DNA of 62,457 nucleotides, filler included, from Catajapyx aquilonaris (Eukaryota), in assembly GCA_000934665.2 (NCBI GenBank). It is 2 parts of 2 records of this genome, joined end to end, with 100 filler letters (N's around TTAATTAATTAA, not from the genome) between each part and the next. Parts side by side here need not be neighbours in the genome. Positions count along the whole stretch, not along the records: positions 31,274 to 62,457 come from JYFJ02004565.1; 1 more part is not named here. One strand, written 5' to 3'. This document shows positions 31,174 through 61,365 of the stretch, piece after piece (the stretch's first letter is position 1; every line of letters begins with the position of its first letter). Under the pieces are notes generated by a model. That model was not told where the DNA came from and did not search any database. It was given only the letters and a program-made list of their open reading frames with translations. Made by a program: the position numbers and the translations under genes.

Positions 31174-31273
31174 NNNNNNNNNNNNNNNNNNNNNNNNNNN
31201 NNNNNNNNNNNNNNNNNTTAATTAATTAANNNNNNNNNNNNNNNNNNNNNNNNNNNNNNNNNNNNNNNNNNNN
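31174..31273. other. Artificial 100-bp gap/linker (44 N + TTAATTAATTAA + 44 N)
   Basis: Symmetric N runs around a 12-mer (31218-31229) that puts stop codons in all six frames, typical of a contig-joining spacer. Confidence 0.95.
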
Positions 31274-31328
31274 TATGTCGTTATGACCATCAGAATTTGA
31301 GATATTCAAGTCAAAGACATAAATAAAA

Positions 31329-31447
31329 ACCAGTCTTTCCTCTCTTCTTTCCCCTCTTCGTTTCTCTCTCTATCTGTCCCACCTTTGCTTCTTCTTGCAG
31401 CCAGATAGCCATAGTTGCTTTGGCTTCTTCCAAATAAACCAAACCAA
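31329..31447 (+). mobile_element. 5'-truncated copy of the ~270-bp SINE-like retroelement (3' half)
   Basis: CCAGTCTTTCCTCTCTTC...CCCACCTTTGCTTCTTC...GCCAGATAGCCATAGTTGCTTTGGCTTCTTCC..ATAAACCAAACCAA matches 51338-51462 (+) and 52472-52590 (-). Confidence 0.8.
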
Positions 31448-35496: not shown

Positions 35497-36253
35497 CGTC
35501 TACATCAGTGCCATGTTCCTTCTTGCAACGTTTGGCCCTTTTTTCCTTCCTTGGGCGACACCTTGCATCATGGCATATCTATTGTCTTCGTTTGGGCTAA
35601 AAAAAGGTCCCATCACGTGGTCGTCAACTTTCACTTCACGAATTCTCGCTTAATACTCAGAGGTAATATTTACTATAATTATGTTCTCGACATATCACAG
35701 GTTTATTTGTGTGTGAGAGAACACCTTGCACTGTTCATTTTTATTAGGAGGGAAATAACAAGGAATCCAATGATATGTCTGGTAATCATTTACTAATAAT
35801 ATTGAAATATTGCATAGTTTGCATTGTTGACTCGACTTTATTAATCATTTACTTAAGTTACACTATTAGAGCGTTAGACGCGTCACTTACAACGCCATTT
35901 ATTACGAATAGTGTACAGTATATGCGGTATAACTTGAGATTCGTTTAAATGTCATTTCCGTAGCAGAAGAAATGTCAGGAATCAATTAAGATAATTATTT
36001 TTTAAATCACAACTATGAAAAAATTGAATGTGGCCATGTTTTTCACGTTTGGTCCTACTGTGCACCTGTTTAAATGGAACCAACAGCCTACTATACGCGG
36101 GATACGATGAAAACGTCGCCCACAGACTTAGATGACTTGTAGCAGTCCGTCATTATTATTGCAGGGGTACGACTGAATTTGTCTGCAATGTATTCCCGGA
36201 ATGATGTAGGCTTGGACAGTGGCACGCGTCATACACATGGGAATACCTCATCT

Positions 36254-36479
36254 CTGCCGTCAGATGTGAGAGGACCGTAACTCAATGTCCACTTCCCCTT
36301 GCGGCGAGAAAAAAGAGCAGTGGTACCAAAAGCACCCAACAGGTGGCGTTGGGGGAAGGGGGGGAAAAAGGAACGGCACCCCAACTCCACCTGTTGGGTG
36401 CTTTTGGTACCACTGCTCTTTTTTCTCGCCGCAAGGGGAAGTGGACATTGAGTTACGGTCTTCTCATATCTGACGGCAG
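36254..36479. mobile_element. Near-perfect palindromic MITE (226 bp) with 4-bp TSD ATCT
   Basis: Arms of ~100 bp (CTGCCGTCAGAT.TGAGA.GACCGTAACTCAATGTCC...) are almost exact reverse complements around a ~23-nt spacer; ATCT at 36250-36253 and 36480-36483. Confidence 0.85.
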
Positions 36480-36759
36480 ATCTGTGATCCCACAGTGTAT
36501 TGTCGGATGTGTCACATTCTTGAAACTGCCCATCTATGAATATGGGTTACACATCGTTTCCACGATGACAAATCAGTGTGGAACTTGGTATGGAGAAAAC
36601 TAGCTCATGTTCACTCACTTCATTAGTAATAAATTATTACTAATGATATCTAGATGTCTATTGACTTCGCAGAATTAATTTCGCAGAATTAATTATCTCC
36701 CTTTTTTTTTAAGTATAAAATATATATAAACAAGAAAATAAAACCTTTGGTCCAGTTAA

Positions 36760-50139: not shown

Positions 50140-50809
50140 GTATGTATATATGGTAACAATAAACGTTTTCCGCCAGCAATTGTTTGCCAATTATTAGCAA
50201 ACAATTGCAGGCGGAAACCTTTTCATTAGGATGGTAATGTAGGTTGGTTACATTTCATGTTTCAGTGGGTGGTGGGCTTATTAACCCCTACCGGGATTCT
50301 TCCACCACACTACCTAAGATATTGCAGGCATGCAGTGCAATTACCATTTTCACAAAATAACTGCACATCACGACCACATTTTCGTTGGTTTCATATGCTA
50401 TTGCCGGAATAATTGACAATAATTATGACCTGATATGAAATGGAACCAACTCTTTCAGGTGTTTCCAAGTTGAACCTCAAAACTGAAATGTGAAATAACA
50501 CAGTACATGACTTCAGCCATGCAATAGTAGTATATAGCACCTTCCATAACAAGTACCAAGACAGGTGTGGCTATAATATGCCTTAAATAAATGATATTGT
50601 ACAGCATTTAACACCACAGAACTGGATTGCAGGAACACCACACTGTCTTACAGTGAACGGATGTACAAGTATTTATTTATTATTATTATATTTATTATTA
50701 TTATTTATTGTAGTGCAAGGCAAAGGCCAATGCCCGACCATGTGTCTCTGACACTAATAGGGGTAACTGTACTACTGCAGCAGATCTCCCACAGGACTCA
50801 GAGTCAGTG

Positions 50810-51744
50810 TTTGAATTCCGTTCAAGTAAGAAATCATTTTGTGTTTCAAACATTGATCATGACAATGACTTAATTACAGAGAAGGCAACTTCGTTGTGTA
50901 AGATGCTAGATTCCCTTGTGCTGTCTGAATACAACGAAAACGTCCTGTATTACATTGCAGGTTATGTTGCACGGGGCTTGTTGAGATGTACCAGATGCCT
51001 AGATTGCAAAGTGAAACTTGTAGCTGATGACTGTGTTTTTTATGACCACGATTACACATACCATAAGCGAATGGCTGTTTTTACTTCTATGAAGGACAAT
51101 GGAGGACTAACTAGGCCTTCGAATGATGTATTCACTGTGGGTTAAATACAGTGAATGTGCATTCAGAAGTGTGATGATGGGACCAACCTCCCCCCGATGG
51201 TATCTCCACCTTATCGTGGTGGTGGGGTTTGCGTTTCTCCAATGACCCCAAGAGCTATGCCGGCGGTAGCTTCGTCTACTGGTAGGGCCACCCAAGCCGG
51301 ACAGGTCTTTGGGATAGGAGACAGACTAAGAGAGATGCCAGTCTTTCCTCTCTTCTTTTTCCTCTTCGTTTCTCTCTCCATCTCTCCCACCTTTGCTTCT
51401 TCTACGAGTTCTACAGCCAGATAGCCACAGTTGCTTTGGCTTCTTCCTAATAAACCAACCAATCTGAAGTCTGTACTACAACTGTCAAGAACTATTTCTG
51501 CTTGAAAGTACTTGTTCATGCTGTCTTCAGAAGGTTGTGCTGTATGCCACTGTTTCTAGCTGCAGAGAACTGTTGTAACTGTGAAATTTTTGATGAGCCT
51601 CACTCATTTCAAATGATAAAGAAGGTTGCAGAAAAGTACTTGGAGCTTCGTCTAAGAACGTATGCTAAACACTTCACACACGAGAATTTAAAAACTGGTG
51701 TGCGCCAGAAGATCAACAAGTGTATTTTGTTTGTTCATGAATGA
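50810..51744 (+). pseudogene. C-terminal fragment of a P-element/THAP9-like transposase, interrupted by the SINE-like element
   Basis: ENVLYYIAGYVARGL..C.DC...L, KDNGGLTRPS.DVF, then after the insert H...MIKKVAEKYLELRLRTYAK...RQKINKCILF. Confidence 0.8.
51187..51462 (+). mobile_element. ~275-bp non-coding retroelement with candidate HDV-like ribozyme head and (ACCA)-type tail
   Basis: Interrupts the P-like transposase frame; ACCAA at both junctions; homologous to 52472-52736 (-) and 31329-31447. Confidence 0.75.
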
Positions 51745-52088
51745 GCGATGTTTGTGGTACTGTATGGGATATGTTTATTGTATGAATAGTAAGGCTTATG
51801 TTCCTATATATTTTTCAAGTTAATATACTGCCACATTACAGGCGTATAGTGTTGCTTTGAGTTGATGCACTGTATTTAACGTAAATAGATACTCTTCATA
51901 AATGAGTGAATAACAATGATGTATTTACTTTGTGAAAGAATGATGGTTCTATAGTTTCTGTGATGTAATATGAAGTTGACACTGTGTACTTGTAATAAAA
52001 GAGGTTATCTGAAATATATTATTTTCATTCTTGGCTTACTCCATTTTTAACAAATAACCTGTGATGGGCCATCTTTGGACCTTTTGGG

Positions 52089-52300
52089 GGAACCTTTTCA
52101 CGAATCGCCCTGGTCCAAGGGCAGGGCGACTGGGAGGGGATGTGCAAAGTGCAAGTGCAATGTCTCAAACGGTACATTTTTGTGAACTCACCCGGATATA
52201 TATTAGTCTCTCGGAGATTCCACCCGAGAGGAAGCCAGAGACGACCCAACTCTGCGCGAGATGAAGGGGGCAGACCCCGGGCTGGGATCGAATCTGGGAC
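52089..52300 (-). mobile_element. tRNA-derived SINE, copy 1
   Basis: Reverse-complement similarity to 53621-53812, including the B-box-like GATTCGATCCC and the body CCCTTCATCTCG.GCAGAG.TGGGTCGTCTCTGG. Confidence 0.65.
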
Positions 52301-52348
52301 ATTCCAAGCCTACTCTGTTATACTCACTTAGAGGTTCTTCGATTTTAT

Positions 52349-52418
52349 TTTAATATTATTTAATATACTTGTATTGTACTTAATATACTTCTATTGTATT
52401 TAATATACTTGTATTGCA
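52349..52418. repeat. AT-rich 20-bp tandem repeat (about 3 copies)
   Basis: TTAATATACTT(G/C)TATTG(T/C)A(C/T) repeated at 52360, 52380 and 52400. Confidence 0.8.
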
Positions 52419-52471
52419 CCTCGTCTTTGCTTTCTATGCCAGTGGTACTATTCATTGTGTTTTATAGTTCA

Positions 52472-52736
52472 GTTTAGTTTAGGTTATTCGGAAGATGCCA
52501 AAGCAACTATGGCTATCTGGCTGTAAGAAGAAGCAAAGGTGGGACAGATGGAGAGAGAAACGAAGAGGAAAAAAGAAGAGAGGAAAGGCTGACATCTCTC
52601 TTAGTCTCTCCTATCCCATAGACCTGTCCGGCTTGGGTGGCCCTACCAGTAGACGAAACTACTGCCGGCGTAGCTCTTGGGGTCGCGGGAGAAACGCAAA
52701 CCCCACCACCACGATAAGGTGGAGACTGCCAAGGGC
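52472..52736 (-). mobile_element. Second near-full copy of the ribozyme-headed SINE-like element
   Basis: Reverse complement reads GGCAGTCTCCACCTTATCGTGGTGGTGGGGTTTGCGTTTCTCC...GACTAAGAGAGATGTCA...GCCAGATAGCCATAGTTGCTTTGGC...TAACCTAAACTAAAC. Confidence 0.8.
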
Positions 52737-53614
52737 ATTCACCGAGAAGAGGCTAAAGTACGCGCATCACGCACCTCAGCCGTGGATCTACGACCAAGTG
52801 GAGGAATACTGGACTCCGGTTCACAGCCTCGACCAGAAGATTTGGGTTGACCACATCCAAGGACACTTGCCTTGGAATGGTCAGCAACCTCCGCGGATGA
52901 ACCTTCAAAGCAACCCACGCAGGACAACGAGGACACCAACCTAGCCAGTTCCTAATCATCGTACTTGATAACCAAGAGAAGAGTTCCAGCAGTGATTGCA
53001 TCTAGACCTTTGATATGACACCCTGGCCGAATTCGTGAGAGGGAGCGTCTCTCGCAGGATTGTTGCTTGCCGGTACACTCACGAATTATTTATAGTTCAA
53101 AGGGGAAAACTACTGCTCGCCCGGCGTTCCCTGAAAATAGTGCATCAGCTGCTGGAGCAGCCCGCGAGGGTGCATCCGGATTAGTAGTACGTCACGTGAT
53201 CGCGGTATCGCCTCGTACGGAGTAGTACCGCCATCGTCACTGTTCCAAACCGCGAGTTCCAAACCTCCTGTGTCCTGCTGCACCCACTGTACTCGCAGTA
53301 AGTTGCAGGTAAGTTGCACATGTACTGTAGTAGGTGACATGAATTCAGGGCACAGTTCCGACATTCTGACCAATGCTACAATCACTGATCTTGATATTTT
53401 AGACATGCCTCGAACTTTGGGAGAATATGGAGCCAACATGAAATGTGACTTGTGTGGGAAATGGGGGCCGCGTAACCGAACGAGGCCATACCAAGCACCA
53501 CAAGGAATAGCTGGACGTGCATGTGGGCGATGCCATCACAGGATTCATCGTGGTAAGTGTGACCAATATGTCGGCAGAGTGCCCCTGCGGTAATAACGTA
53601 TGCGCCCATGGATG

Positions 53615-60448: not shown

Positions 60449-61365
60449 CCCTTACCAAAATTTAACATAGCCGCGAGCCTGCCGCTAGGTCGCCAGAAGC
60501 TGGCGAGCTCGCCTCAGGATAGCCGCCACGTCGCGGGACCTCGCGGCTGTCAAATATTCTCCTGACCTCGTCATGACGAGCTAGCCGCTACTTGGCGCCG
60601 AGCAAGTCATTCCGCGATCTCAAGTCTCTTTTTCTGACCTCGTCATGACGAGCTAGCCGCTACTTGGCGCCGAGCAAGTCATTCCGCGAGGTCAAGTCTC
60701 AATTTCTGACCTCGTCATGACGAGCTAGCCGCTACTTGGCGCCGAGCAATTTATTCGAATGTGGGGCAGCTTCCCGCGTGGAGATGGCGCTGCCGTCGGT
60801 GTATCGTTGCACCGATTTATCCCACAACAATGCGAATAAATTTTGGCCATTGCCCATGTGCAAAGGTGGCAGGATACTCCACTGCATGCGGCTCATTTAC
60901 CCCCGAGGTACTTCATTGTGACATTAATTTGCTAGAGTCGTTAAATGGCAATGCTGTTTGGTGCGAGCAAGACAATCCGCGGTATGAAAGAGCCATACAA
61001 GCCGGGCACCACTTCTACGAAAACCAAGCAACCAACCATGCGAAGAAGCGAATAATAAAAAGCGAAAAAGCCACTTCCCCATCCCCAGTATGACTTGCTC
61101 GGCGCCAAGAAGCGGCTAGCTCGTCATGACGAGGTCCCCTTACCGAAATTAATTTATATATAATATCAATATAGTGGCGAGGTGGTCGCGAGGTGGGTAC
61201 CTCGCGACTACCTCGCCACCGCCACCTTGCGACCACCTCGCCACCGCCACCTCGCCGCGACTTCGCCCGCGACATAGCGAAATGAAACAACCGCTAGTAT
61301 GCGGTTGGGTGGCCATAAGCTCGTCTGACGACCTCGCCGCGAGGTAGAGAAAATTTCGGTAAGGG
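60449..61365. mobile_element. Non-autonomous CMC/EnSpm-like element (917 bp) with internal 72-bp tandem repeats
   Basis: CA|CCCTTACCAAAATTT ... AAATTTCGGTAAGGG|CA (TIR plus 2-bp TSD). 72-bp unit starts at 60562, 60634 and 60706, inverted copy at ~61091-61136, extra internal TIR at 61137. Confidence 0.75.

Follow-up and report, generated by a model that had tools for sequence, protein, structure and literature searches.

Does a short, dispersed, non-coding repeat in an animal-type genome begin with a self-cleaving RNA? The question is raised by a stretch of 62,457 nucleotides from Catajapyx aquilonaris (NCBI GenBank assembly GCA_000934665.2), which we refer to as the window. An earlier note on this DNA had proposed that positions 51187-51340 form a hepatitis delta virus (HDV)-like ribozyme of the Pr77 type. 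We found that this segment sits at the front of a full-length copy of a non-coding retroposon of 274 bp, here called W1, located at 51190-51463 on the forward strand. In the reading that we favor, with a probability of about 0.65, W1 belongs to a bipartite, tRNA-less, non-autonomous derivative of a long interspersed element (LINE) that exists in thousands of copies and is headed by an HDV-type ribozyme resembling that of L1Tc/Pr77. As judged from the sequences compared here, the support that goes beyond chance comes only from related elements, which are described first.

Related Elements and the Architecture of the Head

An exact search of metagenome contigs with the 21-nucleotide core of the W1 head identified 9 loci, which were divided into 2 subfamilies, M1 and M2. 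The loci correspond to 6 independent insertions, because loci L003, L007, and L008 represent the same insertion, as do loci L004 and L009. The M elements are copies of another short retroposon, which carries hairpin repeats in its interior, a 3' stem-loop, and a tail of (GGTAA)n. Their BLAST likeness to W1 was confined to 22 identical nucleotides. The complete HDV-type order of segments (P1, P2, P3/L3, P1', P4, J4/2, P2') was present in W1 as well as in all of the M insertions (6 of 6). The topology read from W1 in the earlier note was thus found with all its segments in order, and its distinctive parts recurred in elements of other hosts that are unrelated to W1. The segments of W1 were as follows.

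51190..51196, + strand: P1 5' strand, CCCCCCG; 5 of 7 positions pair with 51221-51227; predicted cleavage just 5' of C51190
51198..51206, + strand: P2 5' strand, TGGTATCTC; 9 contiguous pairs with 51332-51340, one of them G.U
51208..51220, + strand: P3/L3; ACC (51208-10) and GGT (51218-20) close the 7-nt loop TTATCGT; invariant in 8 of 8 aligned sequences
51221..51227, + strand: P1 3' strand, GGTGGGG; invariant in 8 of 8
51228..51325, + strand: P4 domain, 98 nt; base UUUG (51228-31) with CAGA (51322-25), TCTCC (51236-40) with GGAGA (51317-21), and a long distal arm, in the minimum free energy (MFE) structure of the head
51326..51331, + strand: J4/2; CUAA (51326-29) plus GA; candidate catalytic C51326
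51332..51340, + strand: P2 3' strand, GAGATGCCA; pairs with 51198-51206
51247..51261, + strand: proximal module of the form CNAAGAG..ATGCC; a second copy, which could stand in for the P2 3' strand in a shorter fold, at the cost of a 2-nt bulge
51341..51400, + strand: pyrimidine-rich tract; its potential pairing with 51317-51335 would compete with P4, J4/2, and P2

The pairings that had been assigned to P2, to P3 around TTATCGT and to TCTCC/GGAGA were all present at these positions, as was the CTAA motif with its candidate cytosine. For P1, it is correct that CCTCCCC at 51187-51193 pairs with GGTGGGG at 6 of 7 positions, but this register starts 3 nucleotides too early, in the flank of the element, and the true P1 pairs at 5 of 7. 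The 21-nucleotide core, which had also been seen at 52700-52720 on the reverse strand, was confirmed to have 2 matches in the window, with 0 expected.

All 6 M insertions start with CCCCACC, which is the Watson-Crick complement of GGTGGGG at 7 of 7 positions. In the 4 insertions for which both ends were contained in the sampled stretch, target-site duplications of 8 to 12 bp abutted the first C in all 4 cases. The cleavage site of HDV-type ribozymes is the nucleotide with which P1 begins (PMC4908430), and target-site duplications that abut the first base of P1 are therefore what self-processing predicts. The element start coincided with the start of P1 in both families, as defined by the target-site duplications for the M elements and by a family edge at 51190, where the C run of P1 begins, for the W family. 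Judged by their pairing, the relatives with a perfect P1 are better candidates for activity than the W family.

The 2 strands of P2 differed in sequence between W1 (TGGTATCTC/GAGATGCCA) and the M elements, and the pairing was retained. It was formed by GGTCTGC/GCAGACC in M1 and by TGGTCAGC/GCTGACCA in M2, where a U-A pair was swapped to A-U. In a MAFFT alignment of the W and M heads (A4), which was reliable in the 5' core and in the 4 inner pairs of P2 but not elsewhere, we counted 14 pairs from P1, P3, and these 4 inner pairs; the outer pairs of P2, which MAFFT offsets, and the closing pair of P4 were compared by eye and left out of the count. Every cell of the 4 inner P2 pairs was paired, and both sides had changed in 3 of these pairs. 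Over all 109 cells, 97.2% were paired, compared to 40% to 66% in slid controls, and the covariation score was 0.224 against a mean of 0.081 in shuffled alignments, with 0 of 500 shuffles reaching the observed score, in a control that ignores relatedness and with 2 lineages represented. An alignment of the 6 distinct M sequences gave a similar fraction, with 97.4% of 155 cells paired versus 31% to 57% in slid controls.

The motif CUAA preceded the 3' strand of P2 in 8 of 8 sequences, though the P4 domain ranged from 47 to 98 nucleotides and was largely non-homologous. It measured 98 nucleotides in W versus 47 to 49 in M, with no homology apart from GATGACCC. In M1, the motif is doubled (CTAA-CYAA), which makes the acting cytosine ambiguous in that subfamily. 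It was also noted by eye that the base following P1' and the base preceding the C change together, being C and G in M, and U and A in W.

Further along the M elements (L002 to L008), about 150 to 260 nucleotides in, there are tandem hairpin units of about 20 to 25 nucleotides that resemble TTCGGCTTCACAGCCGA, with 1 to 3 units in the M1 copies and 5 in M2. The L006 copy contained, about 293 to 385 nucleotides from its start, a short GGTAA tail, some 67 unrelated bases and then another (GGTAA)n tail, which is followed by the target-site duplication; this arrangement could represent a 3' transduction or a composite insertion.

The W Family and Its Copies

The window contained 3 copies of the W family, one of which was truncated at the 5' end. 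The copies and the 3' features of W1 are listed below.

51190..51463, + strand: W1, full-length, inside a remnant of a P-element/THAP9-like transposase; family edges at 51190 and 51456-58 in Logan contigs
52474..52735, - strand: W2, without the first P1 bases; P2 kept with one bulged G
31330..31447, + strand: W3, 5'-truncated; retains no more than the pyrimidine tract, the 3' stem-loop, and the tail
51415..51441, + strand: 3' stem-loop, an 11-bp hairpin in the MFE structure; presumed recognition site of the reverse transcriptase of a partner LINE
51449..51463, + strand: tail, AATAAACC followed by AACC-type repeats; similar tails in W2 and W3

To place W1 within its family, we aligned Logan contigs of 4 runs to positions 51100-51520 at 80% likeness, and recovered 1128 (X1), 1047 (X3), 45 (X5), and 326 (X7) contigs on the W element; runs with small shares (X6 and X8 to X20, termite gut metagenomes among them) are outside these counts. 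The summed word depth in X1 was approximately 2e4 to 1.3e5 over most of the element versus 34 in the flanks; this quantity is not a copy number, according to the tool's own warning, and it suggests a very abundant family with thousands of copies.

Contigs broke into unrelated sequence at 51190 in 16 and 17 cases in the 2 runs of one organism (A) and in 43 cases in a second organism (B), and the letters upstream of the breakpoint agreed at only 0.39 to 0.44 among contigs. At the other end, homology stopped at 51456-58 and was followed by variable, AAACC-like letters. When 51190-51463 was removed in silico, the P-like transposase remnant on either side read through as a single open frame (...AFRSVMMGPTSEVCTTTVKNYF...KKVAEKY...). 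Positions 51187-51189 were therefore assigned to the flank rather than to the element, since the family edge is located at 51190 in 2 organisms and the frame is restored by removing 51190-51463.

No convincing target-site duplication was identified for W1: GAAGTNTG and ACCAACC were both weighed, the latter being confounded with the tail of the element itself, and the likeness between the 5' flank and this tail extended over only 7 nucleotides. The 5' flanks of W1 (ACCAACC; 51182-51189 compared to 51454-51460) and of W3 (AAATAAA..; 31316-31329 compared to 31432-31447) resemble the AATAAACC/AAACC tail, which suggests that target sites may be picked by pairing with the tail; the resemblance would blur any target-site duplication.

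The description of the element as an abundant, tRNA-less, non-coding retroposon of about 270 bp held, given its length of 274 bp, the contig depth and a search with ARAGORN, which found no tRNA in 50500-53500. Nor was there a match to any small-RNA family in Rfam, and W1 thus does not carry the head of a classical short interspersed element (SINE). No Pfam match to a reverse transcriptase was obtained in 15 scanned open reading frames of the window, out of 26 with a length of at least 150 amino acids. The traits expected of bipartite non-autonomous LINEs and SINE-like elements were observed, namely a short and non-coding sequence, many dispersed copies, 5' truncation and a repeat tail, with target-site duplications contributed by the M elements only. 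In Kojima's terms the element is a bipartite non-autonomous LINE, or loosely a SINE, and it presumably arose from a parent LINE by internal deletion.

The contigs contained several variants of the element. A second family edge was observed at 51246, where 14 to 15 contigs per run of organism A matched from this position onward and had a diverged head (...GGGGCTTGTGTTTCTCCCATGAC). In organism B, most copies shared just 51190-51231 at a likeness of at least 80% and diverged thereafter (43 contigs), the head core therefore being far better kept than the rest of the element, and a few contigs ended near 51307 in an A-rich stretch. Within the head, about half of the summed depth in organism A carried A in place of G51337, a change that turns the U.G pair of P2 into U-A, and no variant at CTAA reached 10% of the depth in these contigs. 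A minority subfamily in organism B, represented by 11 contigs, read ...CCCCACT before 51196 and would pair at 7 of 7 positions of P1, with a consensus agreement of only 0.56.

Single-Sequence Tests and Evidence against a Ribozyme

A number of observations weigh against a ribozyme head on the W elements. The first concern the fit of W1 when it is considered on its own. We used a loose HDV-type descriptor of our own, which consisted of a 3-bp P3, a 7-nt L3 with U1 and G6, a P1' strand located right after P3', a closing helix of P4 of 3 bp or more, and CNAA followed by P2'. It matched 7 sites in the real window. Hits with at least 5 of 7 pairs in P1 and at least 9 bp in P2 were found in 50 of 200 dinucleotide-shuffled windows (mean 0.28), and those with at least 6 of 7 pairs in P1 and the same P2 in 16 of 200 (mean 0.09). 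The MFE structure of the head includes P2, P3, and the long P4, and its z-score was -0.75, with 38 of 200 shuffles folding as well or better. For the whole element, the z-score was -0.25, and the MFE structure paired 51317-51335 with 51360-51379 in the pyrimidine tract, thereby occupying P2 and J4/2. The ribozyme fold, if it is used, would therefore need to act during transcription.

A P2 partner as long as the one observed, anywhere in the 200 nucleotides downstream, was found in 32 of 2000 shuffles for W1 and in 160 to 688 of 2000 for the M copies, so that the informative point is not its length but its constant position after CUAA. No match of W or M to the Rfam families for HDV, CPEB3, and drz ribozymes was found, either at the gathering score or at E-values up to 10, which weighs little because these models describe particular lineages. 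The fit of the single W1 sequence does not exceed chance.

The second group of observations concerns the helices. P1 of W1 contains a C.U mismatch at position 5 and a G.G mismatch at position 7, and no variant that repairs P1 reached 10% of the depth in the contigs of organism A. In W, P1.1 could consist of a single pair, A51213-U51228, which competes with the base of P4, and in M it was not evident, with an A opposite a C. Covariation among the copies, which had been named as a check on the fold, was seen as compensatory changes in 3 of the 4 inner P2 pairs, but P1, P3, and L3 were invariant and therefore provide no covariation support. The lineages compared were only W and M, the latter with 2 subfamilies, and within the M-only alignment there was a single compensatory pair, a result that 76 of 500 shuffles equaled.

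These results bear on the possibility that the likeness is fortuitous, and that W1 is an ordinary repeat with a head of no ribozyme ancestry. The frequency of loose HDV-type hits, at 0.09 to 0.28 per shuffled window, and the lack of an Rfam match are what this explanation would lead one to expect. It does not explain why the same topology, with a perfect P1, is located at the exact start of 6 independent insertions of an unrelated element, as defined by target-site duplications where both ends were seen, nor does it account for the compensatory changes in P2. We consider such a coincidence highly improbable.

The covariance model raised another alternative. A model built from the M elements (R1) aligned W1 as 51189-51273, with a score of 26.7 bits and an E-value of 3.9e-5, through the proximal rather than the distal module, and this alignment (A3) was left out of the pair counts. 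Searched across the window at E-values up to 10, the model recovered only the 2 known copies and no further heads. The alignment favors a ribozyme with a shorter fold, in which the 3' strand of P2 would be the proximal GAG-CU-ATGCC at 51252-51261, the catalytic cytosine would lie in CCAA at about 51247-48, P4 would be almost absent and the distal module would be a duplicate. Both modules have the form CNAAGAG..ATGCC, and this alternative had been raised in the earlier note too. However, the proximal strand pairs only with a 2-nt bulge, whereas the distal strand forms 9 contiguous pairs, and no helix was evident in the 19 nucleotides that would make up P4. The sequence of W2 has a change that breaks a pair at the proximal site and leaves the distal strand paired, and the spacing from CUAA through GA to the 3' strand of P2 at the distal site matches M2. 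The shorter fold is thus a poor candidate, and we retain the distal strand as the partner of P2.

Searches with a 20-nucleotide version of the core found 0 matches in viral contigs and 1 match in genome contigs (L010:501-520). The latter was located in a bacterial coding sequence (MPPYRGGGDMI), which we take to be a gene of the cysteine-desulfurase type, and it was set aside since approximately 1 match was expected by chance. The core alone is therefore not diagnostic.

A Possible Alternative: a Conserved Module without Catalysis

The strongest competing explanation by our reckoning, though still an unlikely one, is that the head is a conserved promoter or binding module without catalytic activity, that the uniform 5' end reflects the transcription start, and that the HDV-like appearance is a decayed relic or irrelevant. 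A core of 22 nucleotides that is identical across otherwise unrelated elements, with no covariation in P1, P3, or L3, fits a constraint from the binding of DNA or protein. The W family reached thousands of copies despite its mismatched P1, and its fold energy is no better than that of shuffled sequences. The Pr77 sequence is described as both a promoter and a ribozyme (PMC3383444), in line with this explanation, and the 2 roles can coexist. Moreover, a promoter leaves unexplained that the strands of P2, which are at least 100 nucleotides apart, change jointly, that CUAA is fixed beside the 3' strand of P2 across non-homologous P4 domains, and that M starts with 7 bases exactly complementary to the 7 that follow P3.

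Whether the W version with its mismatched P1 still cleaves efficiently is somewhat doubtful, because of the internal C.U mismatch.

If the head is a ribozyme, the element would be transcribed either as a segment of a longer transcript or from a promoter that the head itself contains, and the nested double pseudoknot would fold co-transcriptionally, ahead of the competition from the downstream pyrimidine tract. C51326 of the CUAA motif would then catalyze cleavage just 5' of C51190, and a partner LINE would insert copies of the freed RNA, which still carries the 3' stem-loop and the repeat tail, at new sites.

Relation to Known Ribozymes and Retroposons

The closest likeness is to L1TcRz/Pr77, which is found in L1Tc, NARTc, RIME, and SIDER elements of the Ingi clade in trypanosomatids. 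There the ribozyme lies at the very start of a LINE and of the short non-coding elements derived from it, as the W head does at the start of W1. The 2 have in common a C-rich 5' strand of P1, a 3-bp P3, a P1.1 of one pair (a possible one in W1) and, as derived from the published primers, CTAA before the 3' strand of P2 (PMC3185411). In the same source, P1.1 of L1TcRz is given as a single base pair. When reverse-complemented, these primers read GGT-GCCAGGG-T and GAGGAAG-CTAA-G, which bears out part of the likeness to the L1Tc core that had been given in the earlier note (PMC3185411). A core that had likewise been given for RTE/BovB elements was not confirmed, its strings being absent from the supplement of PMC5786205 in the part available. 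SIDER heads cleave in vitro, and sequences downstream of the L1Tc ribozyme can refold its RNA, much as the pyrimidine tract may do in W (PMC4035085). The differences are that L1TcRz resides in trypanosomatid hosts and the W head in an animal-type genome, that the sequences of P1 and P2 differ and P1 of W has an internal mismatch, and that the whole of L1TcRz measures 77 nucleotides versus 98 for the P4 domain alone in W. On balance, the W head probably belongs with the L1Tc-type HDV-like ribozymes, and its derivation from a ribozyme of the L1Tc/Pr77 type is the more probable origin, considering the C-rich 5' strand of P1, the possible single-pair P1.1 and the CUAA in J4/2.

The first pair of P1 is G.U in the HDV ribozyme and C-G in W, and none of the Rfam models for the HDV/CPEB3 group matches. 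The W head has in common with this group the nested double pseudoknot (P1-P2-P3-L3-P3'-P1'-P4-J4/2-P2'), cleavage predicted at the first base of P1, and a core formed by L3 and J4/2 (PMC4908430).

Among the sequences in the supplement of PMC5786205, positions 2-74 of Vingi-2_Gav, a crocodilian LINE, form a 5' end that, together with the matching middle of SINE2-1_AMi, looks very like the mammalian CPEB3 HDV-like ribozyme. If this likeness holds, Vingi LINEs carry a head of the CPEB3 type, distinct from that of the W elements.

Bipartite non-autonomous LINEs that lack open reading frames (SIDEs) derive from RTE, Ingi, Vingi, and R2 elements, and have been tied to the self-cleaving ribozymes at the 5' ends of R1, R2, R4, RTE, and Ingi as well as LOA (Kojima 2018, PMC5786205); the SIDEs of R2 are described in PMC3414825. 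They are similar to the W elements in having LINE-type 5' and 3' ends, a repeat tail and no small-RNA head, and the difference is that here the same head core is placed on 2 unrelated bodies and tails, of the AAACC type in W and (GGTAA)n in the metagenome M elements. A broader view, which we hold to be rather unlikely, is that the head would be a portable module of ribozyme-headed SINEs, in which an L1Tc-type core of about 40 nucleotides, 22 of them identical, takes the place of a promoter for RNA polymerase III (Pol III) on unrelated bodies with the tails of partner LINEs in animal hosts, and is tied to the Pr77 lineage of trypanosomatids. A limited literature search, which is no proof of being unpublished, found no description of the W head and no exact core strings.

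If the head cleaves, the W elements would be a retroposon of high copy number, in the thousands, that relies on RNA catalysis, and not on a Pol III promoter, to define its 5' end, with a core that resembles the trypanosome L1Tc ribozyme. The perfect and the mismatched versions of P1 in related hosts provide a natural comparison of how much damage to P1 is tolerated. Current Rfam models miss such heads, and annotation pipelines will therefore record no more than plain repeats. The principle itself has been published for R2 SIDEs, NARTc, SIDERs, and the bipartite elements of RTE and Vingi, so that the gain would be one of breadth and not of mechanism.

Surroundings in the Window

The window is animal-type DNA, with FCH/TOCA exons, remnants of PIF/Harbinger and P-like transposases, and assembly gaps. 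The decayed transposase frame in which W1 is inserted covers approximately 50900-51189 and 51464-51700, being split by the element, and has an earlier frameshift near 51150. Its P-element/THAP9-like label is putative, being based on translated motifs and not on a database match. An assembly gap at 31174-31273, which consists of 2 runs of N flanking the linker TTAATTAATTAA, adjoins W3. Two further repeats in the window are unrelated to the ribozyme head: 3 tandem units of 72 bp at 60557-60772, and a near-perfect inverted repeat of 102 nucleotides at 36253-36480, the arms of which are 97% complementary and located 24 nucleotides apart.

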